The notes beneath the pieces were generated by a model. That model saw nothing but the letters and a program-made list of their open reading frames with translations, had not been told where the DNA came from and ran no database searches. Made by a program: the position numbers and the translations under genes. From Candidatus Gottesmanbacteria bacterium (lineage in GTDB: Bacteria; Patescibacteriota; Microgenomatia; UBA10105; UBA927), in contig JAUXTO010000022.1 of NCBI GenBank assembly GCA_030679255.1, positions 64,915-128,914 on the forward strand: a stretch of 64,000 bases of DNA. The letters run 5' to 3'. This document shows, piece by piece, positions 14,446-33,882 of the stretch. The number at the start of each line of letters is the position of its first letter. Within the stretch, counting starts at the first letter, position 1.

Positions 14446-14718
14446 TTATCGATACAACTGGCTATGGGTGCCAAATAATTTGAATTCTATGATGATCTCT
14501 CCGGTTGCAGAGTGACTCTCCGCATAAAGCGCTCGCCAATCGCCAGTCACGTTAATACTCCGGTATCCTTTGTACGAGCCTGCCAGTGCGTGATTATGAA
14601 GGAAGGGATGAAATGGATCAGTTTGAAAAAGCTGAGATCGCTCTGCAAAGGCCAAACGTATATGCTTATTCGCCTTGCGGTATTGCTTGCGGAATACTTT
14701 ATCGTGCCGGATGTCCAT
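14446..14718 (-). CDS. YafQ-like RelE-family toxin
   Basis: FRKQYRK....HALAG..KGYRSINVTGDWRALY matches the YafQ pattern. Internal start MDIRHDK chosen. Confidence 0.6.
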   Translation of the reverse strand: MDIRHDKVFRKQYRKANKHIRLAFAERSQLFQTDPFHPFLHNHALAGSYKGYRSINVTGDWRALYAESHSATGEIIIEFKLFGTHSQLYR

Positions 14719-15013
14719 TCTGATATCGAGCCTTCGGGTCGTCAAGCCAGGCAATCGAGTCTTTCACGTTGCTAAACGAAGGAGAAACGAATCCCGCCTT
14801 GGTATCCTTTTCAGCTTGTTTCAACATCCGTTTTGTCCAGGGCGTAGGTTCTAGTCGTACATCATCAGAAAACTCCACGGTGCGCGTCCGGACCAGGTTG
14901 CGAAGGTACGCATTGAGGACAGAGCTTAACGAAAACCCCAAACGCTCCACCACCGCTTGCGCGTTCTTTTTTATTTTCGGATCGACTTTGAAATTGACAA
15001 CTGCAGTATTCAT
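14699..15013 (-). CDS. DinJ/RelB-family antitoxin
   Basis: N-terminal MNTAVVNFKVDPKIKKNAQAVVERLGFSLSSVLNAYLRNL resembles the DinJ ribbon-helix-helix domain. Sits directly upstream of the YafQ-like gene. Confidence 0.6.
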   Translation of the reverse strand: MNTAVVNFKVDPKIKKNAQAVVERLGFSLSSVLNAYLRNLVRTRTVEFSDDVRLEPTPWTKRMLKQAEKDTKAGFVSPSFSNVKDSIAWLDDPKARYQNGHPAR

Positions 15014-15196
15014 ACCAGGTAGTAGAATTTCGCTGTTCCTGTACGGAACGGAAGTCTACTCTCCAACGTGGTTATCCACTCATTCACCAGGTAATGTTTT
15101 CAATGTGTCTTCACATTGAGCGAAATTTCACTACCTGGCATATATACGAAGTATATACTTTATATATATCCTGTCAAGCCAAATCATACTATAGGA

Positions 15197-15229
15197 TTGA
15201 CTTTAACTCTCTCTCTCTCTCTGTAAAAT
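15197..15229 (+). promoter_or_regulatory. sigma70-like promoter with (CT)n spacer: TTGACT - CT-rich spacer - TGTAAAAT
   Basis: TTGACT at 15197-15202 and TG-TAAAAT at 15222-15229. The 21-nt spacer is longer than optimal. A Shine-Dalgarno AAGGAG lies before the ATG at 15431. Confidence 0.35.
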
Positions 15230-15430
15230 CCCTCCTACAGGTCGCACAAACCCCGCTCTACGCTGCGGTATGTTTGTTGATCTGGGCACCTTTACAGTTT
15301 GAGAAAAGCGGAACGTGACTATTCTCCTTTTCCCCCATTGGATAGCAACATGCGCATACACCATCTTGTGCCTATGTTTCTATCCAATGGAGATAGGAAA
15401 ATTGAAATAAATTATTCAAGGAGAATAATC

Positions 15431-15793
15431 ATGAACAGCAACACAGAAAGATTCAAGAACCTTTTTACAAAGAAAAACTTTTCAAAATTGATCCACGCGT
15501 TGTCTACGCTCCTGTTCGTCGGGTACGCCCTAGTGGTGTTCGCTCAAAAACCTCTAGCAACCCTAACACAAGGAGAATTCGCGCTGATGCTTTTCGGGCT
15601 TTTATTGCTCGGCATTTTGGAGACGAGTCATTTTATCGTCTTCATAAAAAACTTCAGACGCCAATATCTTTACACCGTTCTCAACTGTATGGGCGTAATC
15701 ATGTTGATACTTGCCATCAGTCCTGGCGACTACTTTGTCACTCTCCTGATGGTTTTGGGGTTTACGTTTTTAATAGCTTTCGGGCTAATATAA
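15431..15793 (+). CDS. small membrane protein (3-4 predicted TM helices)
   Basis: Hydrophobic segments LIHALSTLLFVGYALVVFA, LMLFGLLLLGIL, MGVIMLILAI, VTLLMVLGFTFLIAFGLI. RBS AAGGAGAATAATC precedes the ATG. Confidence 0.5.
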   Translation: MNSNTERFKNLFTKKNFSKLIHALSTLLFVGYALVVFAQKPLATLTQGEFALMLFGLLLLGILETSHFIVFIKNFRRQYLYTVLNCMGVIMLILAISPGDYFVTLLMVLGFTFLIAFGLI

Positions 15794-15891
15794 CCCCACT
15801 TTTCTCAAGCACCACCCTCCCCGTACACCGGACATTTGCCAATGGTGGCAGCAACAATGGTGTACGGGAGAGGGATTTTTTTTGATAAAAA

Positions 15892-16311
15892 TTACGGCAG
15901 TTTCAAAAAATCCTGCGGGGTGAGGATGGTAACTCTTTCGATGCTACCGCGAAGCGCCAATAAATCTTTATCCGCGCTCACGAGATACACGGGTTCACTC
16001 CCCGCTACGGCAAGCGCGATTCCGAGGATTTCATTATCATCAGGATCCCGACACAGAATCGTTGACTGGGGCACTATCACATTACCGGATGCAACAATCA
16101 TCTCTATAAACGTTGCTGCCGTTTCGCGGGTTATATCATACTTCCTCAATCGTGTGTAGGTAAATACGCGTGCAAGCTCAGTAAGGAGGCCATGGCTATA
16201 CCATAGAGCAATTTTTCCATCCATTGCGAGGTCAAAGACGCGCCAGTCACTCCCGCCTGGTCGAAGAAGTGCACGAACGAGCACATTAGTGTCAACGATG
16301 ACGTTTGGCAT
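15892..16311 (-). CDS. PIN-domain toxin (VapC-like)
   Basis: VIVDTNVLVRAL start and conserved acidic residues (D..E..D..D) spaced as in PIN domains. Confidence 0.7.
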   Translation of the reverse strand: MPNVIVDTNVLVRALLRPGGSDWRVFDLAMDGKIALWYSHGLLTELARVFTYTRLRKYDITRETAATFIEMIVASGNVIVPQSTILCRDPDDNEILGIALAVAGSEPVYLVSADKDLLALRGSIERVTILTPQDFLKLP

Positions 16312-16585
16312 ACCGTTTTGCCCGTTCGATATCCGCGTTTAATTCTTCATCGGAAACATCGGCATTTTTTATACGCATAGCGTCCCATATCTCCTCCATT
16401 TTCTTTTTAAGCAATTGTTTTTTGAGCATTGTAAGCTCCTGATATTCACTATATGCCATCATAACCGCCTCCGGCACGCTATCCCGCACCACCACGAGCG
16501 GTTCATCGGAACTGCGCAGTTTAGCAAGCACCTGCGTAAACTTTCGCTGCACATCGGTAGAACTGATTATGTTCGTACTCATCAT
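16292..16585 (-). CDS. putative antitoxin (Phd/YefM-like) partnered with PIN toxin
   Basis: 97-aa ORF overlapping the PIN start by 20 nt. PLVVVRDSVPEAVMMAYSEYQEL resembles YefM. Confidence 0.5.
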   Translation of the reverse strand: MMSTNIISSTDVQRKFTQVLAKLRSSDEPLVVVRDSVPEAVMMAYSEYQELTMLKKQLLKKKMEEIWDAMRIKNADVSDEELNADIERAKRYAKRHR

Positions 16586-16626: not shown

Positions 16627-18654
16627 TTATCGTATCTTCGCTCCCACGGGGAGACCTTCGGCAGAAACAAACAGGGGCTTTGCCGTTTTCAAAGCCTGGC
16701 TTTGATCTTCTGGAAAGCCTGGCTTTGAGTCGACCGCCAATATCATCCCCTGGCTCTCCTCATCCATCATTTTTCGCGGCGCAAGATTGGTGATAAAGAA
16801 AAATTGCTTATTGAGGAAGTCTTCGGGTGTATACCCAAACCCCCGCACGCCGGTAAAAATAATGCGAAGTTCTTTTTCATCCCCCTTACCTCCCTTATCT
16901 CCCCCATCTCCCTGATCTCCCTTATTCTTCAACCCAAAATCCACCACGAGCCGTATGAGTTTCTCACTCCCCTCTTTGTTGGTCGCCTCAACGACTTTCC
17001 CCACCCTTAGCTCCACCCTGCCAAATTCTTCAATGGTTATGACGCCATCATTTTCTCCGTTGCCTAATTGTTTTGCAGTCTTTATTGGTAGTATTGGTAG
17101 TATTTGTTTATTGGTAGTATTGGTAGTATTTGAATATTGATTGATAAGTCCCACCGCCTCCCGTACTTCCCGCATTGTCTCCCCTGCAACTATCCTCGCT
17201 TTTGCCGCCCCGTCCTCTAGTATTTTCTTGACGGCCGCAGGATTTGCTGCCAATTCCTTATACGCTTTTCTCGCATTTGCAAAGTATTTAAGTAATGATT
17301 CATACAGGTAATTTTTTACCTCAACATCTGCTATCTGACCCTTTCTATAAGCTTCTTTCAGTTCGTTGTTTTTTGTTTTTTGTCCAAAATAATCTAGGTA
17401 GGTAAAGACCATGTTGCCCTCCGTGTGTCCGGGGTCCGTTGCATGAATTCTGGTCGGATCCGTGTACGTACTCATCACCTGCTTTCGTATTTTTTCCTCA
17501 TCGTCAAAGATGCTGATGATATTTCCCAAGCTCTTGCTCATCTTCCGTTTCCCATCTGTTCCCAACACCGCCCCCACCTCCTCCGGTATATACGCCTCCG
17601 GCAGTTTGAATACTGCGGTCTTGCGCGTCCCAAGCAAAGTCGAGGGATAAATCTTATTGAAGCGTTCTGCGATATCGCGTGTAATCTCCACGTGCTGTTT
17701 CTGGTCTTTCCCCACCGGCACGAGGTCCGGTTTATAAAGAAGGATATCCGCAGCCATAAGGACGGGATAATTAAATAAACCGAGATTAATATCCTCTTCC
17801 AGGATATTTCTTTCGAGCTTATCCTTATATGCATGGGCGCGCTTGATGAGGCCCAAAGGTGTCACATTATTGAGTATTGTTTGGAGGTCAGGATGAAGCC
17901 CAATATCTGATTGACGATAAAATATCAGGTTGCCAAACTCCTTTTCGGAAAGAAATCCCTTAAGGAGCGCGAGCTCATTGAGGATGAGCGTTTCAGAGTT
18001 GTGTTGGAGTTGAGTCCTATCCTGTATCGTGGTTAACGCGTGTAAATCTGCCACAAACAAAAAGCACTCGTTCGTTTTTGCAAGCTCAATAAACTGCTTG
18101 ACTGCACCTAAATAGTTCCCAATATGCAGACTCCCATCTCCACTTGGCGTGATACCCGACACTAGTCGTTTCCCTTGTACTACACGTTTCAACTCGTTGA
18201 ATGCAAAATCTCCAACCATCCCCCCGTTGACCTTCGGCATGTCAAGAGCATTCATCACCATGCCAAGCGTTCTCATGCCGCCGATGCCATATGCTTTCCC
18301 AATCGTCAATACTTTTGCATCGATAAAATACGGAATAGCAAGTCCCAAGTACGGCACAAGTCCGGCTTCTGTTCCCAAAGTTTTCAGCTCTGCTTTGGAA
18401 GCAAATGCAAGCGTCTTGACCACTGCGAGTTTTTTGAATTTTTCCTGATCTATCTGGGTATCGGCGCACTTGACTGCGGCGACTATCCCCTTCTCTGTTT
18501 TGTAGAGTATCGTTACCATCGCCTGTGCAAGGGAAATGTGATGAAACGCGGCGTGTGACGGCACGTCAAACGGCAAATCCTCCGGCAAGGGGATAAATTT
18601 GTAATCCACCTTATTCTCATTTAGTATTTTTTCGATGGTATCTTTTAGATTCAT
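16627..18654 (-). CDS. trpS: tryptophanyl-tRNA synthetase with N-terminal YbaK/ProX-like deacylase domain and C-terminal EMAP/Trbp111-type tRNA-binding domain
   Basis: SGITPSGDGSLHIGNYLGA (HIGH-type) and KRKMSKSLGN (KMSKS) match TrpRS. The C-terminal VELRVGKVVEA...NLAPRKMMDEESQGMILA is the OB-fold tRNA-binding module. In-frame TTNTTN and KPGF repeat segments are present. Confidence 0.85.
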   Translation of the reverse strand: MNLKDTIEKILNENKVDYKFIPLPEDLPFDVPSHAAFHHISLAQAMVTILYKTEKGIVAAVKCADTQIDQEKFKKLAVVKTLAFASKAELKTLGTEAGLVPYLGLAIPYFIDAKVLTIGKAYGIGGMRTLGMVMNALDMPKVNGGMVGDFAFNELKRVVQGKRLVSGITPSGDGSLHIGNYLGAVKQFIELAKTNECFLFVADLHALTTIQDRTQLQHNSETLILNELALLKGFLSEKEFGNLIFYRQSDIGLHPDLQTILNNVTPLGLIKRAHAYKDKLERNILEEDINLGLFNYPVLMAADILLYKPDLVPVGKDQKQHVEITRDIAERFNKIYPSTLLGTRKTAVFKLPEAYIPEEVGAVLGTDGKRKMSKSLGNIISIFDDEEKIRKQVMSTYTDPTRIHATDPGHTEGNMVFTYLDYFGQKTKNNELKEAYRKGQIADVEVKNYLYESLLKYFANARKAYKELAANPAAVKKILEDGAAKARIVAGETMREVREAVGLINQYSNTTNTTNKQILPILPIKTAKQLGNGENDGVITIEEFGRVELRVGKVVEATNKEGSEKLIRLVVDFGLKNKGDQGDGGDKGGKGDEKELRIIFTGVRGFGYTPEDFLNKQFFFITNLAPRKMMDEESQGMILAVDSKPGFPEDQSQALKTAKPLFVSAEGLPVGAKIR
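17084..17131. repeat. (GGTAGTATT)n tandem repeat inside trpS (encodes TTNTTN on minus strand)
   Basis: Same 9-nt unit in tandem at 38422-38461 and 38561-38590, inside two other genes. Confidence 0.65.
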
Positions 18655-18713: not shown

Positions 18714-19430
18714 TCAAAGGTAGCTTAGGCGGGCCTCCTTTGTATAATACTGTTTTAATATGGTGTTTGCGAGAATGGAAAGTGAATTATAAACCGGCAG
18801 GTCATAATTCGTTGGAAAAACCAGTGGAAGCTCCGTGCATCCTAATACAATCCCATCAACCTTCTCTTTTTCTCGATAGCCAGTCACCAACGTTACGAGT
18901 TTTCTCATGAGCATTCCACGATCTTCTCCGGATAAAACTCCCCGTATAATATACTCGAGCTCCCGGTAATCCCGCTCCTGTGGGACGATATACGGCAAAT
19001 CATGACGCGCCAAAGCAAGTTGGTAAAGTCCTAGCCGCAATGACGTTGGCGATGCGAGTAGTAATACCCGTGGAGCATTCCGAGACACTTCTTTGACCAC
19101 CGCATCAACAATCGAAACAAATGGCACGTCGGTTTGCAGTTGCAGTCGGTCCGCGAGAACACACGCGGTATTACATGCCATTGTGATCGTCGTTGCGCCA
19201 TAAACGGTTAATCGCCGCACGCGGCTTTCTAACATCTGAGCGGCTTCTTCCATTCTTTCCATATCACCAATAAAATAGGGCACCGGCACTGAGTCAATGA
19301 TGATTTCCGGATACTCATCATTATTTTTCGCGCCATAGATATGCCGCGCTTGATCGATGAGGATACGATAAAACTCCGCACTCGCCTGCGGCCCCATGCC
19401 ACCGATCACGCCGATAATGTTGTTATTCAT
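18714..19430 (-). CDS. aspartate/glutamate racemase family protein
   Basis: IGVIGGMGPQAS at the N-terminus, plus the two Cys motifs MACNTA and LGCTELPL. Confidence 0.75.
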   Translation of the reverse strand: MNNNIIGVIGGMGPQASAEFYRILIDQARHIYGAKNNDEYPEIIIDSVPVPYFIGDMERMEEAAQMLESRVRRLTVYGATTITMACNTACVLADRLQLQTDVPFVSIVDAVVKEVSRNAPRVLLLASPTSLRLGLYQLALARHDLPYIVPQERDYRELEYIIRGVLSGEDRGMLMRKLVTLVTGYREKEKVDGIVLGCTELPLVFPTNYDLPVYNSLSILANTILKQYYTKEARLSYL

Positions 19431-19433
19431 AGG

Positions 19434-19659
19434 CAGATCCGCTCCGGCTCGAACGGAGAATAGGAATTTTGTCCCAGAAGTAGCTTGCGGGGCTCCTCTG
19501 CTTCGAACAGAGAACGCTAGTTTTGGAGACTAGAATGATTCCAGTTTCACCAAAGCCCCAGCCGCTTAGTACTTCGGGATCCCGCACGCTAAGCCAAATC
19601 TTTTTGATTTGGCAAGTGATGCGGGAGACATTCCTGTGATTCCATTTCACTACGGATCT
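19434..19659 (-). tRNA. split or intervening-sequence-containing tRNA gene enclosing tRNA-Trp; anticodon not assignable (CUC/Glu if junction falls after loop position 36)
   Basis: 5' half 19659-19630: AGATCCG TA GTGA AATGGAA TCAC A GGAAT. 3' half 19467-19434: ATTCC TATT CTCCG TTCGAGC CGGAG CGGATCT G. Acceptor, D, anticodon and T stems are all perfectly complementary and the T loop is canonical. They are separated by 162 nt. Confidence 0.5.
19488..19559 (-). tRNA. tRNA-Trp (anticodon CCA)
   Basis: Hand-folded cloverleaf on the minus strand: acceptor GGGGCTT/GAGCCCC (7 bp, one GU); D stem GTGA/TCAT; anticodon stem CTAGT/ACTAG with loop CTCCAAA (U33, CCA, A37); T stem CTCTG/CAGAG with loop TTCGAAG; discriminator G. 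CCA not encoded. Confidence 0.85.
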
Positions 19660-19718
19660 AAAAAAGCCCTTGTAAATCATCCACGATAATCGTGGAGAAT
19701 GTACAAGGGCCTTCTTAT
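19660..19718 (-). terminator. rho-independent terminator-like hairpin (GCCCTTGTA...TACAAGGGC + T6 on minus strand) abutting the tRNA 5' end
   Basis: 9-bp GC-rich stem with nested inner hairpin, followed on the minus strand by TTTTTT at 19665-19660. Confidence 0.4.
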
Positions 19719-20028
19719 TTGAAGGGGTACCACCCTACTTCGCTTTTCTACAAAAAATCCCACCGGAACGGCGGGAGATATGTAAGAAAAACCTCATTAC
19801 ATGCTCCGCTGAATGCGACACATGGTGCTTTATTTTTACAGTTAAGCTTCCGGATGAGACATTCCTCAAGAGATAGCCTCATCAGCGTTTTGATATTTCT
19901 ATCAATTGGAAAGATCCCAATCAATCTCTCCTTACGCTTTTATTCAACTGAAAAGTAGTATAGCACAGGCTTTGACGCTTGACAAGCCTCTCTACTATGT
20001 TATTATATTGTTATAACAAAGGAGACAG

Positions 20029-20281
20029 TATGAAACAAAAAATCATCAAAGTCGGCAATTCCGGAGCAGTCTTGATCCCAAAACAGTATTTGGACACGCT
20101 CAAACTCAAAATTGGATCTAGCATTAATCTTGATTTACAGGAGGACAGTTCACGCCTCGTTATCGACGTGCCTGCTAAATATATGAGCATGAAAGTTCCG
20201 TTGGATAAAGAGGTCTACGCAGTCGGCCAGGATCTCCTGAAGCGCTATCTCCCTGCATTTGTAAAGCTTGCACACGCATGA
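20029..20281 (+). CDS. AbrB/MazE/SpoVT-fold antitoxin
   Basis: KIIKVGNSGAVLIPKQYLDTLKLKIGSSINL is the swapped-hairpin motif. Stop overlaps the start of the Doc toxin (ATGA). A TTGACA-16-TATTAT promoter lies at ~19975-20005. Confidence 0.65.
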
Positions 20282-20661
20282 AATATCTCACCACGGAAGA
20301 CGTGCTCCTCCTCCATCATCTCTCTATCGAAAAAAGTGGCGGCTCCCACGGACTACGTGACGCTGGGCTATTGGACGCCGCCGTCCATCGACCACAGGCG
20401 ACATTTGATGGAGAGGATTTGTACCCCAGGCTCTTTGATAAAGCTGGAGCCCTTTGTCACTCCCTCATCAAAAATCATGCGTTTGTCGATGGGAATAAAC
20501 GCACATCGCTCCTTTCCACCATGACGTTTTTGGAAATCAATGGGTATACGTTCAAGTGTAAACAAGAAGAACTCGTAGTATTTGGTCTGAAAATCGATAA
20601 CGAAAACATCTCGCCGAACGGCATCGCCACTTGGTTTATATCCCACTGCATTAAACGCTAA
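20278..20661 (+). CDS. Doc (death-on-curing) / Fic-fold toxin
   Basis: HAFVDGNKRTSL matches the Doc/Fic motif H.F.DGNKR. Confidence 0.8.
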   Translation: MKYLTTEDVLLLHHLSIEKSGGSHGLRDAGLLDAAVHRPQATFDGEDLYPRLFDKAGALCHSLIKNHAFVDGNKRTSLLSTMTFLEINGYTFKCKQEELVVFGLKIDNENISPNGIATWFISHCIKR

Positions 20662-26005: not shown

Positions 26006-26260
26006 ATGACCAGATGGTTTGTCTACATCCTCCTCTGCCGGGGCGGGAGTCTCTACACCGGTATCGCCAAGGATCCGGAAAAGCGATTGAGTGAACACAA
26101 ATCAGGCAAAGGCGGCGCGTACACGAGAAGCCATCCACCCGTTCGCATTGTGTATACACAATCAGTGAAGTCCAGATCCGCAGCGCTTAAACGCGAAGCC
26201 GAAATCAAACGCTGGGGAAGGCTAAAGAAGATCAAGACCCTTGGACTAACCGTGCTTTGA
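26006..26260 (+). CDS. GIY-YIG nuclease domain protein
   Basis: WFVYILLCRGGSLYTGIAKDPEKRLSEHKSGKG...IVYTQ...SRSAALKREAEIKRW is the GIY-YIG motif set. Confidence 0.65.
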   Translation: MTRWFVYILLCRGGSLYTGIAKDPEKRLSEHKSGKGGAYTRSHPPVRIVYTQSVKSRSAALKREAEIKRWGRLKKIKTLGLTVL

Positions 26261-27245
26261 TTTCCTCTATGGTGAGTCGCTCTTCGCGTTGCCATTTCTT
26301 AATCTGCTTAATCCTGATGGCAATCGAAGGATCAAATTGCATAAATCCTCCCTGACTTTTTTGTGTGGGACGGATAAGTCCTTGTGACACGTAGTAGCGT
26401 ACCGTGGGGATAGAGACCATCGATTCTTTAGCAACCGCGCCGATAAAAAGTAGTGGCTGCTTTACGCCTTCCTGGTCAACGAAATATGGGATAACGGGTT
26501 TCCCGTGTGCAGCAGCAGTCCACGCATCCAGCGATCGTTCGACTGCCCCGGCTATGACGTTATAGAAATTTTGGAGCGATCCGGTCATGATGCTATCCCC
26601 AATCGCTTGCATATACGCCTGACGTTCTTCTGTCTTGACTATGGCAATCGGGTACCCATGCCCCAAAAGGATAAGATTCATGAGTAACCTCGCCGTTCTC
26701 CCGTTCCCATCGATGAACGGATGAATATCCACAAACCGGAGATGAAAATCCGCGGCAACTTTCACCGGATGCTCGCCCTGGATACTCCCTAACCATTCAA
26801 CGAGTTTTCTCATTCGCCAGGGCACCTCATTGGGAGGCGGTGGCTCAGTCGCGGCACCGCGGATAAATACCTGACTTTGGCGGTAAATACCAGCCCACCG
26901 GTCCTCAATACCCGTCAGAATAATTCTGTGAATGTCTTTTATATCGTTTTCGGAAATATATTGATGGCCTTTTTTGACGATTGCACGGATAAAACCAATG
27001 GCTTTCTGATGATTGGTTGCCTCCACGTGTTCACGCAATGTCTTCCCTTCTATCGTGATCCCTTTTTCTAAAACAAGCGCGGTTTGCTCGCGCGTGAGCG
27101 TATTGCCCTCGATCCAGTTGGATGTGTAGGTATACTCGGTGTCTAGCCACTCCTGGAGGCTTGCACGCTCTTCCCCGGCAAGGGGCTTAAGCGCATCAAG
27201 CTTTTTCTTCTTTATGCTCAACCGATCAAAAATATCAACCATCAC
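26232..27245 (-). CDS. Fic-family protein with C-terminal MerR-like HTH
   Basis: HPFIDGNGRTARLLMNLILL matches the Fic motif HPFx(D/E)GNGR. The C-terminal SMVSIPTVRYYVSQGLIRP is a MerR-type HTH. Paralog of 33883-34866. Confidence 0.85.
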   Translation of the reverse strand: MMVDIFDRLSIKKKKLDALKPLAGEERASLQEWLDTEYTYTSNWIEGNTLTREQTALVLEKGITIEGKTLREHVEATNHQKAIGFIRAIVKKGHQYISENDIKDIHRIILTGIEDRWAGIYRQSQVFIRGAATEPPPPNEVPWRMRKLVEWLGSIQGEHPVKVAADFHLRFVDIHPFIDGNGRTARLLMNLILLGHGYPIAIVKTEERQAYMQAIGDSIMTGSLQNFYNVIAGAVERSLDAWTAAAHGKPVIPYFVDQEGVKQPLLFIGAVAKESMVSIPTVRYYVSQGLIRPTQKSQGGFMQFDPSIAIRIKQIKKWQREERLTIEEIKARLVQGS

Positions 27246-27329
27246 GTGATAGTTTATACTATCCCCGAATAATCGTCAAGTAGCACTTTTCACTTTACCC
27301 TTTTCACTCTTGACTTTTTTTCTATAGGC

Positions 27330-27358
27330 TTGACTTTTCCTCTCTCTCTCTGTAAAAT
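27330..27358 (+). promoter_or_regulatory. sigma70-like promoter TTGACT-17 nt (CT)n spacer-TAAAAT
   Basis: TTGACT at 27330-27335, 17-nt spacer, TAAAAT at 27353-27358, 9 nt before the ATG at 27368. A second TTGACT and TTTTCACT direct repeats lie upstream (27287-27315). Confidence 0.5.
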
Positions 27359-27367
27359 CAGGTCATT

Positions 27368-27760
27368 ATGATATCCGAATCAAATTCAGAACAAGTATTG
27401 CTTCAATTAATTCGAGCCGCATCCAAGCCCGAGGTCGATGCGTATCAACGCGAGGAGGATGAAGCAGTCATCGCTGCCCTAAAGGACTTATCCCCCGATG
27501 ACGCGCGTGACTTGATCTTGGAGATGGCAGGCCGAGAAGCAAAAGCCAACGACTTCCACGCACGGATGAGAGAAATCGGATGGCATTTTAGCCTCGACAC
27601 ATCCCCAGATGCACTACATTTAGGTCAAAACGAACATGGGTTCCCGATTATCGGATCAGTTGCAGAATTTCCCGGCGGATCATTTTCCATTCGAATAAAT
27701 GATATTGCGAGGGTAATAGGTAGAGAAGAAATGTTGCATGAACTATCTTCACCTAAATAG
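27368..27760 (+). CDS. hypothetical protein
   Basis: 130-aa ORF immediately downstream of the consensus promoter; no motif recognised. Confidence 0.4.
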   Translation: MISESNSEQVLLQLIRAASKPEVDAYQREEDEAVIAALKDLSPDDARDLILEMAGREAKANDFHARMREIGWHFSLDTSPDALHLGQNEHGFPIIGSVAEFPGGSFSIRINDIARVIGREEMLHELSSPK

Positions 27761-27936
27761 GTGTTATTTGACCCCACCAATCCGTCGATGTTCCAAATTA
27801 ACTGTCTTTTTTTTGGCTAACACAGACTTCTGTTTGCCTTCTCCAGCTATTTTTCGTAAAATGAAACCCACGCCAGCGTAGCTTCCTCCAAAGGCGGATC
27901 AGCCTATGGCTGACAATGGTGGGAGCAGAGTATTTT

Positions 27937-28008
27937 GTCAGGGTAGCTCAGTGGTAGAGCACCAGTATCATAAACTGGCCGTCGAGAGTCCGATCCTCTC
28001 CCCTGACA
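27937..28008 (+). tRNA. tRNA-Met/Ile2 (anticodon CAT), elongator-type
   Basis: Acceptor GTCAGGG/CCCTGAC; D arm TA GCTC AGTGGTA GAGC; anticodon stem CCAGT/ACTGG with loop ATCATAA; T stem GAGAG/CTCTC with loop TCCGATC. No 3-GC initiator signature. Confidence 0.85.
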
Positions 28009-28023
28009 CCGAGGGTATCAAAC

Positions 28024-28052
28024 AAAAAATTCCGCATTTAGCGGATTTTTTT
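28024..28052. terminator. bidirectional rho-independent terminator (A6-TCCGCATTTAGCGGA-T7)
   Basis: Stem-loop immediately after tRNA-Met and after the convergent ftsB-like gene. Same module as 21617-21647. Confidence 0.55.
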
Positions 28053-28109
28053 GTTCCACCCTCGTCCGGCTGATGTGAAGCACATAAGTGCTGAAACATG
28101 ATAGCCGGA

Positions 28110-28463
28110 TCAAAAAAACAACCTCCACCACCTCTTCCAATTGGGTATTATTTCTTCCTTTTCTTCGTTTGTTTGGTCATTGGGATTTGTGATTTGAGAT
28201 TTGGGGAGTAATACGACAGTCTCCCCTTCCTTCCCCAATCCCAGCCGATTCCTCGCCTCCTGCTCGATAAACTCGGGGCTCTGGGCATAGTCAAGCTCCT
28301 TTTGAAGCCGCGCGTGCTCAGCCTCTACACGCCGGAGTACGGCCTGCCGCTCCCCTAGGATATCGCGACGGCGCCACAAATCCCAGATCGACCGCGATAG
28401 GTTTACGATCATAAACGCGCTCACCACGATGATAATAATTCGTATTACTCTCCATTTCTCCAT
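28110..28463 (-). CDS. ftsB: septum formation initiator FtsB/DivIC family
   Basis: N-terminal TM helix, coiled coil, conserved EFIEQEARNRLGLGKEGETVV motif. C-terminal tail KSQITNPNDQ resembles the KSQ repeat family. Confidence 0.7.
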   Translation of the reverse strand: MEKWRVIRIIIIVVSAFMIVNLSRSIWDLWRRRDILGERQAVLRRVEAEHARLQKELDYAQSPEFIEQEARNRLGLGKEGETVVLLPKSQITNPNDQTNEEKEEIIPNWKRWWRLFF

Positions 28464-28490
28464 AGTATTTCTCCTCTCACCCCTCTCTCC

Positions 28491-28539
28491 TCTGTTTTCT
28501 GTTATCTGTTATCTGCTATCTGTTATCTGTTATCTGATC
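28491..28539. repeat. 7 tandem copies of heptamer TCTGTTA/TCTGCTA in the divergent ftsB-xerC intergenic region
   Basis: Directly visible tandem array. Confidence 0.6.
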
Positions 28540-28663
28540 TCTCCCTCCTTCCCCCTTGTGTCACGACTTCTTCTATGATATTATAGGTCATTAGATTCAG
28601 CCTCAAGAGTGTATGTACGCTCCAAATAGGCTTCCTGCCACGACCTGCTAACACAATCGATAC

Positions 28664-29545
28664 ATGACCACGACACCTATTGATCTTAAAACCGCCCACG
28701 TCCGGTTTGTGGAATATCTCGGGAGCCGTAAGCGTGCCCGCGCCACCATCGTAGCATACGGCAAAGATATAGAACAACTCGCCGACTTCCTCACCAATAT
28801 GGGGAAAAAAACTATTACAGAGGTCTCCCGCGATGAATTGGATGCGTTTCTCAAAAAGCTGGGATCGGACAACTATACCCCCAAATCCGTTTCACGGAAA
28901 ATCAACTCGATTAAGACGTTTTTCCGGTTTCTCAAAACAAATGGATTGGTTTCTGCCGATCCGGCCGTAGAGATCGAGCACCCCAAATATGACGTCAAAC
29001 CTCCGAGAATCTTGAGTAAACTTGAATACCGGGCGCTGCGGGATGCTTGCAGGGGAGACGCCCGCACGTACGCCATTGTCGAACTCTTTCTCCAGACCGG
29101 CGTCCGGATTGGAGAACTCGCGGCGCTTACTCTGACGGACATCAAAGATACCGAACTCCATGTTGCGGCCCAAGAGGGTCATGCGGCACGCAATGTGCCA
29201 CTAAATAAAGCGGCGAAGGAAGCACTCACGAGTTACCTCAAGGCCCGGGACGCGGTAACCGCCAAAGATCCGGCCAACACTGCGCTCTTTATTACCAAGA
29301 CCGGCAAAGCCCTCCTCATCCGCAACATCCGGACCTCAATCGACCGCTATTTCCGGATTGCCGGCATTGATGGGGCAAAGGTCAATGACCTTCGGCACAC
29401 CTTCATTGCCCACCACCTCATGGCAGGGACATCGATCATGACCCTCTCTAAACTCGTCGGCCACAAGCGTCTCTCCACCACCGAAAAATACCTCGAACTC
29501 GTCAAAGGTAAACAGACGGAGAACGTCAAATTAGAGGAGTTATAA
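28664..29545 (+). CDS. tyrosine site-specific recombinase, XerC/XerD family
   Basis: N-terminal SAM-like core-binding domain; catalytic R (VRIGEL), H..R (LRHTFIAHHL) and Y (TTEKYLEL) motifs. Confidence 0.8.
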   Translation: MTTTPIDLKTAHVRFVEYLGSRKRARATIVAYGKDIEQLADFLTNMGKKTITEVSRDELDAFLKKLGSDNYTPKSVSRKINSIKTFFRFLKTNGLVSADPAVEIEHPKYDVKPPRILSKLEYRALRDACRGDARTYAIVELFLQTGVRIGELAALTLTDIKDTELHVAAQEGHAARNVPLNKAAKEALTSYLKARDAVTAKDPANTALFITKTGKALLIRNIRTSIDRYFRIAGIDGAKVNDLRHTFIAHHLMAGTSIMTLSKLVGHKRLSTTEKYLELVKGKQTENVKLEEL

Positions 29546-30050
29546 GCGCGGCTTCTTCCCGGCACCACGGAGAATAGACATTTGGATTCTTTTTGATTTC
29601 TTCCAAAAACTCCTCCCACTTCATCCATTTCCACGCGTCCACTTCTTTGGGGTCCGGCTTGGGGTCAGTATCGCAATATCCCACCAACACAGGACAAATC
29701 TCGTTTTCCACAATGCCATTGCTATCGGTAAACCGATATCGATACGGCGCCACTTCTTTTATGTCTCTTATGTCATATGTCTTAAGTCCTAATTCCACAT
29801 CCAACCGCCTCTTGGCGGCCTCGGTTACCCCCTCCCCCGGAGCAGGATGTCCACATACGGTATTTGTCCACACACCCGGAAACGTTTTTTTCTTCGAGGA
29901 TCGCTTGGTAAGCAGCAGTTCTTTTTTAGAATTAAACAGGAAGAGTGAAAACCCCCGGTGCAGCGGCGTATCCGTCGTATGAACAGCATCTTTGAGAGCC
30001 GTCCCAATCTCATTATTTTTGTCATCAACTAATACAACAAATTCTTCCAT
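29526..30050 (-). CDS. NUDIX hydrolase
   Basis: Nudix box GHPAPGEGVTEAAKRRLDVELGL. Confidence 0.8.
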   Translation of the reverse strand: MEEFVVLVDDKNNEIGTALKDAVHTTDTPLHRGFSLFLFNSKKELLLTKRSSKKKTFPGVWTNTVCGHPAPGEGVTEAAKRRLDVELGLKTYDIRDIKEVAPYRYRFTDSNGIVENEICPVLVGYCDTDPKPDPKEVDAWKWMKWEEFLEEIKKNPNVYSPWCREEAALITPLI

Positions 30051-30126
30051 ACGTATTTTCTATTATACGACAAAAAAAAAGGAACTCCACCTTGACAAAA
30101 AGATTATCTTAAGATAATCTTTATTT

Positions 30127-30378
30127 ATGAACATGCAAACAATATCCACAAAAACCCTCCGTGAAGATTTCTCCCAAGTGATCGCTGCTATGGAGATGGG
30201 CCAACCGCTCACGCTTCTCTACCGCTCGAGACCACTTGCTGAAATCAGGCCATTAGCACAAGCCAAAAGTGGACTCCGTTCATTTACAAAACAACAGCTC
30301 AAACAATGGATTGTCGCCGATTCGCTCACTGCTCGTGAACAATCCCAAGTAGATGCCATCATTAACGATCTTCCTTGA
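30127..30378 (+). CDS. Phd/YefM-type antitoxin
   Basis: ISTKTLREDFSQVIAAMEMGQPLTLLYRSRPLAEIRP is the YefM fold pattern. Overlaps the downstream PIN gene. Confidence 0.6.
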   Translation: MNMQTISTKTLREDFSQVIAAMEMGQPLTLLYRSRPLAEIRPLAQAKSGLRSFTKQQLKQWIVADSLTAREQSQVDAIINDLP

Positions 30379-30784
30379 CGCGTCTGTTATCCTCTCCGGA
30401 CTCGCCTCTCCGGGCGGCGGGTCGGGAAAACTCCTCGTGGCCGCCACCCAAAAAAAATTGACATTGCTCACGACGCCGCGTGTCATAGAAGAAGTGGTTC
30501 GGCACCTGGACAAATTGCATATCGCCCCAGGCGACCTTCATCAACTTCTCTCTGACAAAATAGTGCGACTGCTGGCTGACCCCAATGAGGAGACGATCAA
30601 AAAATTTCGTCGAGTCATAACAGACCCTGATGACGCCCACGTTCTGGCTGGCGCCGTGACATCCGGCGCAGGCGTTCTTCTTTCACTCGACAAAAAACAC
30701 GTCTTGGCTCCCAACGTGGTGAAAGCACTTCGCCCCATATCCATCCAATCTCCGAAGAGCTTTTGGAGAGGATTGCAGAAGTAA
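30353..30784 (+). CDS. PIN-domain protein (putative toxin)
   Basis: IFLDASVILSGL start and acidic residues D..E..D..D consistent with a PIN fold. Confidence 0.55.
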   Translation: MPSLTIFLDASVILSGLASPGGGSGKLLVAATQKKLTLLTTPRVIEEVVRHLDKLHIAPGDLHQLLSDKIVRLLADPNEETIKKFRRVITDPDDAHVLAGAVTSGAGVLLSLDKKHVLAPNVVKALRPISIQSPKSFWRGLQK

Positions 30785-30804
30785 TCAGCATGGCATGTGG
30801 CCAC

Positions 30805-31527
30805 TCACTTCATGCTCGTTAGCACAAACGTTGCATCGTCATCAAGCCATTTATCACCATTCTGGTGGGCTTTAATATATGGTCGATATGCTAACTCTAT
30901 TGCCTCAATACCACCAATCATAAGCTGATTTGTAAAATTTTCCAACAATCGAATCATGTCATCTTGAGCAAGCATAAATTCATTATTACTCGCTAGATTT
31001 TCAACCATGTTCACCGCATTATGCGCATGATTTTTTGCGATAGAACCTATCACTTCGGGATGAAGAACCAATTGCAATCCTCCATCAGTGACCATCATTG
31101 CGTATCTTACGTCATGCAGAGAAGATGAACGAAGCGATTGGACCTCGATTTGACGGTTATCTACGCCAATATACCCAGGTATAGGACGAAGAATGCCATC
31201 CTCGCTCACCCAATAGATAAAATACCCCCCCTGCGCGGCTTTCAACTCAAATGAATATCCTTTCCCTAAATCTATACGCTGGTATGCAATATATTGTTGA
31301 TCATCATTATTCGTCAATAACAACTCAGCAACCTGTTCTGCTCTCTTTCTATTGCCATCACTCGTCGCTCCCGGACCATCAACCAGTACTAAACGACCAC
31401 CCCTACTCTTTACAACGTCTGCTCCCGCTGATCCATCTGAAGTCATCTGTATTGTGAGAACAGTATGATCACCAATTTTTTCTCTACGTGGTTCCAGGGC
31501 GATGCATTGAGGGATTGGCTCCGTCAT
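30805..31527 (-). CDS. hypothetical protein
   Basis: 240-aa ORF; faint PP2C-like pattern (LVLVDGPG...MMVTDGGL) but not convincing. Confidence 0.3.
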   Translation of the reverse strand: MTEPIPQCIALEPRREKIGDHTVLTIQMTSDGSAGADVVKSRGGRLVLVDGPGATSDGNRKRAEQVAELLLTNNDDQQYIAYQRIDLGKGYSFELKAAQGGYFIYWVSEDGILRPIPGYIGVDNRQIEVQSLRSSSLHDVRYAMMVTDGGLQLVLHPEVIGSIAKNHAHNAVNMVENLASNNEFMLAQDDMIRLLENFTNQLMIGGIEAIELAYRPYIKAHQNGDKWLDDDATFVLTSMK

Positions 31528-31572
31528 ATGATTTACTCCGTATCTACTTATCAGATAAAAAAATAATAAATT

Positions 31573-31644
31573 GTGGGCCCGCTTGGTGACGATCCAAGTG
31601 CCCCCGTCTTATAAGGACGATGCTCTACCGATGAGCTACGGGCC
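31573..31644 (-). tRNA. putative tRNA-Ile (anticodon TAT) with non-canonical T loop
   Basis: Acceptor GGGCCCG/CGGGCCC; D arm TA GCTC ATCGGTA GAGC; anticodon stem TCGTC/GACGG with loop CTTATAA (U33, UAU, A37); T stem CTTGG/CCAAG with loop ATCGTCA (A54/U58 instead of U54/A58). Confidence 0.5.
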
Positions 31645-31665
31645 CCGAGAGCATTATACCAAATC

Positions 31666-32346
31666 TCATATCCTAGTCGCGTAATATTCGGCAATGGCCT
31701 TTATTCCCAATAGCACGCGTTCCTTCAGTCGGGCGTTATTAAAAATTAATCCACATGTTCCATGTCCATAACCTTTATGATCTACCATCATACGCAAACT
31801 TTTCTTTACATATGGCTTCTGAAATTGCGTAAGAGACAATTTCAACGTAGTGCTCCAATACAACATCTCTTTCTCCCTATCCATATCGCTATACAAATGT
31901 AGGCTTACGTGTATTCTCTCCTTTGGAACTTTGAGTATCTTTAGCAGCCAATAAAGATAGAACTTTACCACCATCGGATCAGTATTATTTAAAGCAATAC
32001 TCGTTGGAGTTCTTTTATTGCCCTCGCCCCAATAGAGAAAAAGTCCAGCTATTTCTAGTGATTTTAGATCGATAGGCACTAAACGTTTTTTCTCTTGAGA
32101 GTATATCTGTGACAGACGCGCTTGTCGTTTATTAAGTTTTACGATTCTCGTTTTTTCAACTGCTAATTCTCTACTTTTTTTCTTATTAACCGCTAGTGAA
32201 ACCATCTGATCGTTTGTTAACGGTTCATCACGCAACCACTCAGAAAGAGTACTTTTGGAGACGCGGAGTCGCTTTTTGATTTCTCCATACGTCATCCCCT
32301 GTTTTCTAAAAAAAATAGCTTTTCGTCTATCAATAACTCGAGCCAT
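31666..32346 (-). CDS. HTH-domain protein, possible LAGLIDADG-like endonuclease (speculative)
   Basis: N-terminal FRKQGMTYGEIKKRLRVSKSTLSEWL is a clear HTH. GLFLYWGEGNKRT weakly resembles a LAGLIDADG (GxIDGEG) motif. Immediately upstream of a tRNA gene. Confidence 0.3.
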   Translation of the reverse strand: MARVIDRRKAIFFRKQGMTYGEIKKRLRVSKSTLSEWLRDEPLTNDQMVSLAVNKKKSRELAVEKTRIVKLNKRQARLSQIYSQEKKRLVPIDLKSLEIAGLFLYWGEGNKRTPTSIALNNTDPMVVKFYLYWLLKILKVPKERIHVSLHLYSDMDREKEMLYWSTTLKLSLTQFQKPYVKKSLRMMVDHKGYGHGTCGLIFNNARLKERVLLGIKAIAEYYATRI

Positions 32347-32422
32347 AATCGAACTTAAAAAGTTATACTGTACAAGTATAATACTAAATATCGAAAAAAT
32401 AATCTACAAGAGGAATATAGCG

Positions 32423-33796
32423 TCAAACCAGAAGGAGCCTTTCCATTTCCGCTTCCAATTCCAAAGCCCGCTTTTTATTCTGCCCGAAGATGATGTACTG
32501 CATCTGCCCCATCTCTAACATATTTTCAGAAACAAGAATCACACCTTCATGTGTTTTTTTATCAAACTGTACCGGCTTCAGCGTTTCTAACATTGAAATA
32601 AAGGTAAACTTTTTTCCCTGCGGCAAAGGATAGGTGTTGCACGAGAGCGTATACGTCTCATACATAAACTCTTTTCCGAATATTCGGTTAGCGACAGCAT
32701 AGACGTGCGTCCCGCCGGTACGCCGGACATTGGATTCTGTTACAAAAAGCTCCCCTCCCCGACCAGCGACAAAGTCCACATCGTAGTACCCGCGGTACCC
32801 CGCCTTGGCATACTGCTCGCCGACAAAAAATCCGGTATCGACCATCTGCGCCTCTACGCTGTCGGAAACTACGCTATGGTGTATCTCCACACCACGGAAT
32901 GAGCCCTGAGGGGTCACGCGCATACCACAGTAATACAAAAATTCTACCTTCCCGCTTTTTTGTACTTTAAACTCCACATTAGGAAACCCGCCGCCTACAG
33001 AAGGATTACAGGCGATATAGTCTTCTATGACAATGGGAAACCGGTCCCAGAATACGTCTTTCGAGAGAATCTCCCGGATTTTCTCGCGGCACACGCTATA
33101 CTGCTGCGGAAGTTCGCCGGGACGGAAGATAAGGACCCCGCTCCCCGAATGCCCTTTATTGGTTTTGATGACCACTCCATCGCGGGCGACGTATTTGTTG
33201 GCGGCGATACGCGCCGCGTCATCGATCCCCACGCAAAACATCCCGTCAGCCATACGCAGGTCCGGCTCTACTGCCCCGCTTTTTTGCACAAACTGCCGGA
33301 TGCCGGATTTACTGCCAAAAAAGTTGACAATCCATGCATCTTCCTCTTCCGGCGCTTCCGGGGTATGCACCGCAATCCCCCGCTCCCGCAAAACCTTTAC
33401 TAGCTGCAAAAACTGCAAGGATGTCGTGTAGGAGAGGAGCGTGAGCGATTTGTTTGAGCCCGAAGCGCTGACTAATTCCCCCATTATTTCTTCACTGCGC
33501 AGTATGTCTTCACAAATCTCTCCTGTGTGTTTTGGGGGCACAATCACCCGAGCGTTATTGATATTCATGATCTGGCTGTAATATGAGAGATACGTCTCGC
33601 TCACCAGACGCGGCAATACGTAGAGAATCCCGCCATTTGGGGCCACAGCAAAGATGTCGCGGTCTCCGAGGTGGGCGTTATCCTCGATCTCAAACTCAAA
33701 CATCTTTTTGTCGGAGATGCTCGATATGAAAGGCCACACATCCTCAGACATGTTGGCAATATAGACCGTAATTTCATCACCCATGATATTCAACAC
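32423..33796 (-). CDS. ATP-grasp-like domain protein (tentative)
   Basis: GVVIKTNKGHSGSGVLIF resembles the ATP-grasp lysine/glycine-rich loop. Confidence 0.3.
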   Translation of the reverse strand: MLNIMGDEITVYIANMSEDVWPFISSISDKKMFEFEIEDNAHLGDRDIFAVAPNGGILYVLPRLVSETYLSYYSQIMNINNARVIVPPKHTGEICEDILRSEEIMGELVSASGSNKSLTLLSYTTSLQFLQLVKVLRERGIAVHTPEAPEEEDAWIVNFFGSKSGIRQFVQKSGAVEPDLRMADGMFCVGIDDAARIAANKYVARDGVVIKTNKGHSGSGVLIFRPGELPQQYSVCREKIREILSKDVFWDRFPIVIEDYIACNPSVGGGFPNVEFKVQKSGKVEFLYYCGMRVTPQGSFRGVEIHHSVVSDSVEAQMVDTGFFVGEQYAKAGYRGYYDVDFVAGRGGELFVTESNVRRTGGTHVYAVANRIFGKEFMYETYTLSCNTYPLPQGKKFTFISMLETLKPVQFDKKTHEGVILVSENMLEMGQMQYIIFGQNKKRALELEAEMERLLLV

Positions 33797-33882
33797 TATA
33801 TGTCCTGCAGAAAAAGTAAAGAGACAGTTTTCTGGGTGAGACGATTTGACAACATTGAAGTGTTACGTTATACTTTATAGAT

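Follow-up and report, generated by a model that had tools for sequence, protein, structure and literature searches.

A tRNA-Trp gene interrupted in its anticodon loop by a segment that carries a second, complete tRNA-Trp gene lies on the minus strand of a 64-kb stretch of a Candidatus Gottesmanbacteria contig (JAUXTO010000022.1; the whole stretch is referred to here as the window). In the interval inspected for cloverleaves (19300-19800, read on the minus strand), the complete inner tRNA-Trp(CCA) at 19559-19488 sits within a second, outer cloverleaf whose halves lie at 19659-19630 (AGAUCCG-UA-GUGA-AAUGGAA-UCAC-A-GGAAU) and 19467-19434 (AUUCC-UAUU-CUCCG-UUCGAGC-CGGAG-CGGAUCU-G). As described in an earlier note made from the sequence alone, two nested cloverleaves can be drawn and every stem of the outer one is fully complementary: acceptor AGAUCCG/CGGAUCU (7/7), D stem GUGA/UCAC (4/4), anticodon stem GGAAU/AUUCC (5/5) and T stem CUCCG/CGGAG (5/5). 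Its T loop reads UUCGAGC and its discriminator, at 19434, is a G. Between the two strands of the anticodon stem the outer gene has no contiguous 7-nucleotide (nt) loop with U33 and anticodon; in its place are 162 nt (19629-19468) containing the inner tRNA-Trp.

Both cloverleaves are reproducible, because ARAGORN and the Rfam tRNA model call the inner one, ARAGORN calls the outer one once the inner one has been scrambled, and the minimum free energy (MFE) fold forms the outer helices. The inner call extends over 19487-19559 with ARAGORN and 19488-19559 with Rfam (43.7 bits against a gathering threshold of 29). The tRNA-finder check proposed in the note, done with ARAGORN in intron mode, returned the inner tRNA alone; the outer cloverleaf was called only after scrambling of the inner sequence, as an intron-containing tRNA with a 155-nt intervening sequence and the label Cys(ACA), which is a boundary artefact. 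All four outer helices were recovered in the MFE fold of the 226 nt (-90.8 kcal/mol, z = -6.2), and none of 200 shuffled sequences folded as well.

Related loci were fetched through relatives of the tryptophanyl-tRNA synthetase (TrpRS) encoded downstream and by a metagenome scan for the conserved 5' half. An uninterrupted form of the outer tRNA, here called type A, with the anticodon loop CUCCAAA, was found in nine loci (L003/L088, L086, L087, L089, L090, L091, L092 and L100); all matches of the metagenome scan (5/5) were likewise uninterrupted. The outer halves match the intact tRNA-Trp genes of L086, L087, L090 and L100 without a single difference at nt 1-31 and 35-73 (100% identity). The L086 gene, a tRNA-Trp(CCA) with A1-U72 and G73, reads AGAUCCGUAGUGAAAUGGAAUCACAGGAAU-CUCCAAA-AUUCCUAUUCUCCGUUCGAGCCGGAGCGGAUCUG and lies in a region syntenic with the window (PEMT, Fic, MazE, then racemase, TrpRS, Phd and PIN genes). 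Chance pairing, which the note had judged very unlikely, is excluded because the outer halves match intact tRNA-Trp genes of other loci; the same comparison disposes of the view that the halves are unrelated flanks. Covariation agrees with this. Among the type-A loci, A2-U71 changes to G2-C71 and, in L092, U50-A64 changes to C50-G64, compensatory changes from which type A is judged to be a real tRNA. When nine tRNA-Trp sequences, outer and inner included, were aligned, they formed one cloverleaf with 99.5% of cells paired and compensatory double changes at 16 of 21 pairs; no shuffle (0/500) reached the observed values and no slid register came near. The ARAGORN score of type A equals those of other tRNA-Trp genes and exceeds that of the inner tRNA, and type A is detected up to 120% thresholds. 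By comparison with these homologs, the outer gene is the resident, conserved type-A tRNA-Trp(CCA) of Gottesmanbacteria, normally situated between a tryptophan (Trp) T-box and a TrpRS operon. The identity as tRNA-Glu implied in the note has to be abandoned: Glu(CUC), amber suppressor (CUA) and Cys(ACA) assignments are products of arbitrary joins, and are rejected because the nine intact homologs carry CCA.

In BLAST alignments the identity to the intact genes continues up to nt 31, breaks off and starts again at nt 35. C32-U33-C34 are replaced by 158 nt starting with GUC (net gain 155 nt), a change that can equally be described as C32G with 155 nt inserted between nt 34 and 35; the interruption lies in the anticodon loop, where the note had put it. 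The insert folds with z = -6.1 into a hairpin, H1, followed by a long irregular stalk of leader and trailer strands that bears the inner tRNA; the latter is flanked by the imperfect inverted repeat TCCCGAAGTA/TACTTCTGGGA. There is no direct repeat of the tRNA halves beyond the homology between inner and outer tRNA. The inner tRNA has the cloverleaf, CCA anticodon and G73 discriminator of a tRNA-Trp. It is 78% identical to its nearest relative, the tRNA-Trp of L101, and 58-67% identical to most tRNA-Trp genes of the clade; with the L101 tRNA it has in common the 8-nt D loop AACUGGAA, the T loop UUCGAAG, G1-C72 and G73. The L101 gene is native there, directly upstream of a racemase-TrpRS fusion gene. 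From its likeness to this gene, the inner tRNA is therefore taken as a member of a sister lineage of the clade-native tRNA-Trp genes. Judged by its fold and kinship, the insert is a self-contained unit made of H1 and a leader/trailer stalk with a complete tRNA-Trp(CCA) of the sister lineage.

The interrupted form was seen in the window only: all other type-A copies are intact, and a second interrupted copy was sought and not found in eleven contigs of TrpRS relatives. No genome on record is closer than 77-78% TrpRS identity. That the nested form exists in no cell, a metagenome assembler having joined the versions of two strains, is scarcely credible. The window is indeed from a metagenome-assembled genome, and the locus is polymorphic among relatives. 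Such a path, however, would have to exit and re-enter the same tRNA in perfect register, the junctions share 4-6 nt of sequence, far below assembler k-mer sizes, and the insert is self-complementary and self-contained.

Two alternatives had been offered in the note, a novel intron or split tRNA and a gene killed by insertion of a segment bearing a tRNA-Trp. The second is supported; the first is not, given intact homologs, no join that restores the loop and no intron match. In a functional intron or split tRNA, the 155-158 nt would be taken out of the RNA, whether through a ribozyme or endonuclease of unknown identity or through cutting by RNase P and RNase Z with trimming and ligation (for example by the PF09414 ligase), so that the outer tRNA-Trp is restored and each transcript gives two tRNA-Trp. 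The perfect, undecayed outer cloverleaf speaks for this, as do the position of the interruption in the anticodon loop, the site of bacterial tRNA introns (PMC13011429), and the leader/trailer pairing, which would keep both cut ends together. An Rnl2-family ligase is encoded in the window, and a GUC+CAAA join is accepted by ARAGORN as tRNA-Trp(CCA), at a lower score. Nevertheless, no Rfam match to a group I core (RF00028), to other introns or to ribozymes was found at E<=10 in 19200-19900; in the same window, Rfam readily detected a group I intron at 21900-21710, in a tRNA-Met(CAU) gene 2 kb off (56.3 bits). The note had considered the insert too short for group I, and the 86 nt outside the inner tRNA are indeed far below group I size. 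In tRNA genes with group I introns, a U closes the 5' exon and a G the intron, and splicing yields the same anticodon as in intron-less homologs (PMC13011429); boundaries that obey the U/G rule here yield the loop GUACAAA with anticodon ACA, versus CCA in the homologs. No join of the outer halves regenerates CUCCAAA: the best and sole CCA-restoring one, GUC+CAAA, gives G32, versus C32 in nine of nine intact homologs. RNase P and RNase Z cuts would leave tails of 66 nt and 16 nt that require trimming before ligation. A motif of the bulge-helix-bulge (BHB) type was absent on inspection of the folds, the junction being a three-way junction with GUC and CAAA single strands and not two 3-nt bulges separated by a 4-bp helix, and no splicing endonuclease was matched among the open reading frames (ORFs) scanned in the window. 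The arrangement is present in one genome only, and the Rnl2-like ligase, correctly picked out in the note, is encoded 39 kb away with nothing to link it to the locus. Removal at the RNA level is accordingly held to be highly improbable. A degenerate group I intron was also considered and rejected, there being no Rfam match and local alignment to three clade introns falling within the shuffled null (P ~0.2); so were known non-coding RNA families (YrlA-like RNA, tmRNA, self-cleaving ribozymes), for which Rfam gave no match at E<=10.

The source of the insert was sought in several directions. It is absent from viral contigs (three exact-pattern scans, 0 matches) and from phage and plasmid records (blastn, 0 matches), and a phage or plasmid origin was rejected for this lack of matches. 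A family of miniature inverted-repeat transposable elements was set aside, the inverted-repeat motif having 1 match in the window versus 0.84 expected and BLAST giving no second copy of the insert there or among 95 other loci. The left end of the insert resembles the 3' end of the inner tRNA plus trailer, as would be the case had the insert been cut from a tandem tRNA array, but this similarity is not significant (P ~0.7). Positions 1-165 of L007 hold, from the contig start, nt 2-34 of an L002-type tRNA-Trp as an orphan 5' half, then 58 nt of spacer and a complete but different tRNA-Trp. This second orphan half, which ends after C34, speaks for a mobile cassette: a site-specific, self-complementing tRNA-Trp unit that would target the anticodon (nt 34/35) of the resident tRNA-Trp while its own tRNA kept the host alive. 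The foreign segment starts with TCC in both the window and L007, which, with n = 2, is suggestive of a site preference, and the inverted repeat around the inner tRNA would fit such a unit. We regard such a cassette as quite unlikely. The two cases are the only ones among 19 tRNA-Trp genes called; L007 lacks the old 3' half and lies at a contig end; the two inserts are not homologous; target-site duplication and adjacent transposase or integrase are missing; the inverted-repeat motif does not recur in the window; and the viral, phage and plasmid collections gave no copy.

We consider it likely, instead, that an insertion/replacement in the anticodon loop, at the DNA level, put the resident tRNA-Trp out of use for decoding and brought in a substitute tRNA-Trp. 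Lacking an anticodon loop, the outer gene is no longer able to decode. The locus fails the defining tests of group I introns, of BHB or split tRNAs and of integrase att sites; we read it as nested gene replacement, a rare event, and not as an intron of a new kind, and it is best filed as an insertion-disrupted tRNA gene with self-complementing cargo. The nested arrangement is most likely a one-off replacement, and probably a recent one: that the event was recent and took place in DNA is what we infer.

Several observations weigh against this interpretation. On the donor side, a BLAST comparison with the window and 95 other loci gave no further copy of the insert, and neither a donor nor a mechanism of insertion was found in the sequences searched. 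There is no target-site duplication at the insert and no adjacent recombinase, transposase or integrase, the nearest integrase (28664-29545) being 9 kb away. The Rfam tRNA model (RF00005, gathering threshold 29 bits) gave no match on the intact type-A copy of L086 (2521-2592), even at E<=10 in a 141-nt region. The tRNA-Trp complement of the host was judged from the 64-kb window only. The case is built on DNA sequence, and splicing or other RNA processing may occur. Lastly, the outer halves show 0 changes in 69 nt relative to L086, which fits a recent insertion and continued selection equally. The Rfam miss applies not only to L086 2521-2592 but to all other type-A loci.

The interrupted gene lies between a Trp T-box leader and an operon for an amino-acid racemase and a three-domain TrpRS, neither of which had been recognised in the earlier note; the terminator hairpin that it had placed at the 5' end of the outer tRNA does exist (19713-19661) and is that of the T-box. 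Stem I of the leader is short and contains a conserved UUGGG (19920-19916). The leader also has a Stem II/IIA-B region, a Stem III-like hairpin (19776-19758) and the T-box core AGUAGGGUGGUACC, whose bulge is UGGU (19732-19729); the terminator and a U-run follow, in the usual terminator/antiterminator layout. The core is conserved in nine leaders, where the bulge is UGGU or UGGC; a U opposite G73 is common in Trp T-boxes according to TBDB (PMC7778990). UUGG(A/G) occupies one alignment column of the short Stem I hairpin in 9/9 leaders, so that UGG (19919-19917) is the putative specifier, its structural register being open to doubt. Scores against RF00230 fall below the gathering threshold of 93 bits, both for the window (28.4) and for L086 (36.9). 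The G73 and CCA anticodon of the inner tRNA match the UGGU bulge and the putative UGG specifier. The Stem III-like hairpin, (-) strand UCCCGCCGUUCCGGUGGGA + UUUUUU, also scores as a second intrinsic-terminator-like site and is conserved in related leaders.

The sole promoter-like site on the minus strand between 19300 and 20100 lies upstream of the T-box leader; the composite tRNA region and the racemase-TrpRS genes come downstream of it with no other such site. The racemase AUG lies 3 nt past the outer discriminator G, and the sole Shine-Dalgarno-like sequence, GGAG, is within the 3' strand of the outer T stem. A Trp T-box terminator followed by a tRNA-Trp gene occurs in at least ten loci of the clade, namely nine of type A (window included) and L081. 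The terminator abuts the tRNA in most type-A loci; L091 has a spacer of ~150 nt and L081 a small ORF in between. In the type-A loci the tRNA ends 3 nt before the AUG of the racemase or of a PALP enzyme, with TrpRS after it, and the discriminator-CYU-AUG spacing and T-stem GGAG are conserved in all of them, whichever ORF comes next. This conservation suggests that tRNA 3' processing is coupled to translation start. The interval between T-box and racemase varies in syntenic relatives: L081-L083 have a small ORF and a different tRNA-Trp, whereas in L093 there is a small ORF without any tRNA. In L101 (P0103) racemase and TrpRS form one fusion, and in L087 and L096 a PALP (TrpB-like) enzyme stands in place of the racemase. 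Speculatively, racemase or PALP enzyme and editing TrpRS could serve Trp salvage, possibly from D-Trp to L-Trp, coupled to charging with cis-editing. The T-box appears to control transcription of its own ligand tRNA. A layout running from T-box through ligand tRNA-Trp to TrpRS was not found described in the literature searched, and the conserved T-box/tRNA-Trp/racemase/three-domain TrpRS layout is arguably more interesting than the nested tRNA. Coordinates are collected in Table 1.

Table 1. Features of the interrupted tRNA-Trp locus and two further features of the window, with the basis for each.
Feature	Position	Strand	Basis or remark
Promoter-like site TTGTCA-17-TATACT (with TG)	19957..19985	-	Sole such site on the strand between 19300 and 20100; an equivalent aligns in related leaders
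Trp T-box leader	19703..19945	-	Rfam RF00230, 28.4 bits, E=2e-4; alignment of nine related leaders
T-box terminator hairpin and U-run, directly abutting outer tRNA nt 1	19661..19713	-	Likewise in L003, L086, L090, L092, L100
Outer (type-A) tRNA-Trp 5' half, nt 1-31 (acceptor 5' strand, D arm, anticodon stem 5' strand)	19630..19659	-	Identity to intact homologs
Insert replacing C32-U33-C34 (158 nt, net +155, starts GUC)	19472..19629	-	BLAST boundaries versus intact homologs
Hairpin H1, UCCCGCAU...GUGCGGGA with inner GCCAAAUC/GAUUUGGC helix	19580..19626	-	Fold; inverted repeat I1
Stalk 5' strand = inner tRNA leader UCCCGAAGUACUAAGCGGCU, pairs with 19487-19472	19560..19579	-	Fold; inverted repeat I3
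Inner tRNA-Trp(CCA), G1-C72, G73, no encoded CCA end; presumed working tRNA-Trp	19488..19559	-	ARAGORN, Rfam
Stalk 3' strand = inner tRNA trailer CAAGCUACUUCUGGGA	19472..19487	-	Fold
Junction k-mers of insert with outer halves, ATCACAGGAATGTCTCCCGC and CTTCTGGGACAAAATTCC	junctions 19630/19629, 19472/19471		
Outer tRNA-Trp 3' part, nt 35-73 (loop CAAA, anticodon stem 3' strand, variable region, T arm, acceptor 3' strand, discriminator G)	19434..19471	-	Identity to intact homologs
Asp/Glu-type amino-acid racemase	18714..19430	-	Pfam PF01177, 104.6 bits; NCBIfam asp_race subfamily, 118 bits
Three-domain TrpRS, 675 aa: N-terminal YbaK-like tRNA_edit, class I TrpRS (HIGN + KMSKS), C-terminal Trbp111-like tRNA_bind	16627..18654	-	Domain matches
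tRNA-Met(CAU) gene split by 189-nt group I intron	21921-21661	-	Rfam, 56.3 bits; ARAGORN intron mode i(32,189); default ARAGORN misses it
RNA ligase ORF, 302 aa, PF09414 (RNA_ligase, Rnl2 family)	58855-59763	+	56 bits

If the resident tRNA-Trp was replaced by insertion, as we think likely, expression of the composite locus can be pictured as follows, the processing steps and the choice of functional tRNA being what we infer. Accumulation of uncharged tRNA-Trp would cause the T-box to antiterminate, and the whole composite would be transcribed as one with the racemase-TrpRS mRNA. The inner tRNA would be released by RNase P at its 5' end and, at its 3' end, by a processing enzyme (RNase Z, followed by addition of CCA), and would act as working tRNA-Trp and T-box ligand alike. 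The outer body, its acceptor, T and D modules being intact, would probably still be cut at A1 and after G73; such cuts would separate off the leader, and the mRNA would begin 3 nt ahead of the AUG, as in relatives whose gene is intact. The outer body would then be a relic, possibly still a processing signal for the mRNA.

How long the gene has been interrupted can be approached by comparison with L086, relative to which the leader is 68% identical, the racemase has 83% amino acid identity and 36% of the conserved racemase residues use a different codon. Set against this divergence, the unchanged halves indicate that either the insertion is recent relative to the separation from L086 or the outer body is under selection, which the sequence of a single interrupted genome cannot separate. 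The second possibility is compatible with the replacement that we favor. Selection would keep the outer body as a tRNA-like processing or structural module, directing cleavage by RNase P and RNase Z so that the T-box leader is set free and a near-leaderless racemase-TrpRS mRNA arises, and perhaps presenting or stabilising the inner pre-tRNA, in nature's equivalent of the engineered tRNA scaffolds. The absence of substitutions in the 69 nt despite substantial divergence of the flanks is consistent with this, and so is the conservation, in all type-A loci and whatever ORF follows, of the discriminator-CYU-AUG spacing and the T-stem GGAG. A very recent insertion, however, accounts for the same data without selection, and with one interrupted example constraint after insertion is not measurable; we hold such exaptation to be unlikely. 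A bolder combination, in which compact tRNA-Trp cassettes recur, hit nt 34/35 and take over function (L007 being a second footprint), while the old body is kept as a tRNA-like processing module that sets where the T-box-controlled racemase-TrpRS mRNA begins, a natural "tRNA scaffold" in a circuit where the T-box controls its own ligand, seems to us decidedly doubtful.

Known systems resemble the locus in part. Archaeal intron-containing and split tRNAs, for example those of Nanoarchaeum, depend on a BHB motif, a splicing endonuclease and RtcB. Excision of the inner tRNA would likewise leave two halves paired together in the window; in contrast to the archaeal case, no BHB is seen at the junction, the halves have no loop sequence that can be rejoined to CUCCAAA, and no splicing endonuclease is known from the bacterial host. 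Genomic islands mobilised by tyrosine recombinases use att sites in tRNA anticodon loops, and what they have in common with the present case is a DNA-level event in such a loop. The window insert differs in being only 158 nt long; it lacks both a duplicated 3' segment of the tRNA and a neighbouring integrase (the closest, at 28664-29545, is beside a tRNA-Met); nor does an element end regenerate the tRNA, a whole new one being carried inside the insert. In engineered "tRNA scaffold" RNAs, a cargo RNA replaces the anticodon loop of a tRNA. There, as in the window, an intact acceptor/T/D body has a structured cargo grafted on the anticodon stem, but the window case is natural and accidental, and its cargo, itself a tRNA, would be excised by RNase P and RNase Z. 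The T-box of the present locus shares with the T-box trpS/Trp operons of Firmicutes and Actinobacteria (TBDB, PMC7778990) the UGGU bulge opposite G73, the terminator/antiterminator, the putative UGG specifier and a downstream TrpRS with a putative Trp-supplying enzyme. The differences are Rfam scores of 28-37 bits versus the gathering threshold of 93, a very short Stem I and the ligand tRNA as first product of the transcript. Group I introns have been reported in tRNA genes of Patescibacteria, tRNA-Trp not being among the reported hosts (Nakagawa et al. 2026, PMC13011429). The phylum, the interruption in the anticodon loop and the failure of standard tRNA finders to detect the host gene are common to those introns and the window; unlike them, the window insert has no group I core, has 86 nt outside the nested tRNA, does not satisfy the U/G rule with the correct anticodon, holds a complete tRNA and is not conserved in relatives.

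Some further features of the window and its relatives were recorded. Introns like the group I intron of the tRNA-Met gene are present at L006 907-1112 and L081 112-400, and their class matches the report from Patescibacteria (PMC13011429). A near-identical palindromic hairpin, (G)TCCGCCAG(C/T)TGGCGGA, recurs in L087 (~1702-1722), L007 (~40-58) and the window (~21796-21779, minus strand), in the unrelated RNA contexts of a T-box Stem I loop, a spacer before a tRNA and a group I intron hairpin, respectively; it may be a small mobile or especially stable module. Two Fic-MerR fusion ORFs, at 26232-27245 (-) and 33883-34866 (+), bracket a tRNA-Met (27937-28010), the tyrosine recombinase (28664-29545) and a tRNA-Ile(UAU) (31573-31645), and the region 26232-34866 may be an integrated element. 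Both flanks of the TrpRS operon (14699-16585 and 19979-20661) are densely packed with toxin-antitoxin modules (RelB, Phd/PIN, MazE/Fic-Doc), an arrangement syntenic in L081, L086 and L100.

By itself, the nested event is a curiosity, an essential tRNA gene, possibly the only tRNA-Trp gene of the genome, having been disrupted and at once rescued by an insert tRNA of the same specificity. It illustrates the in-place replacement of a tRNA gene in reduced genomes, and the outer gene is of a kind that annotation tools can miss or mislabel. Should the type-A tRNA be the decoder of the cell, a riboswitch would control its own ligand together with the synthetase, a positive-feedback design that was not found described in the literature searched; if so, processing of the tRNA 3' end would also yield a nearly leaderless mRNA.

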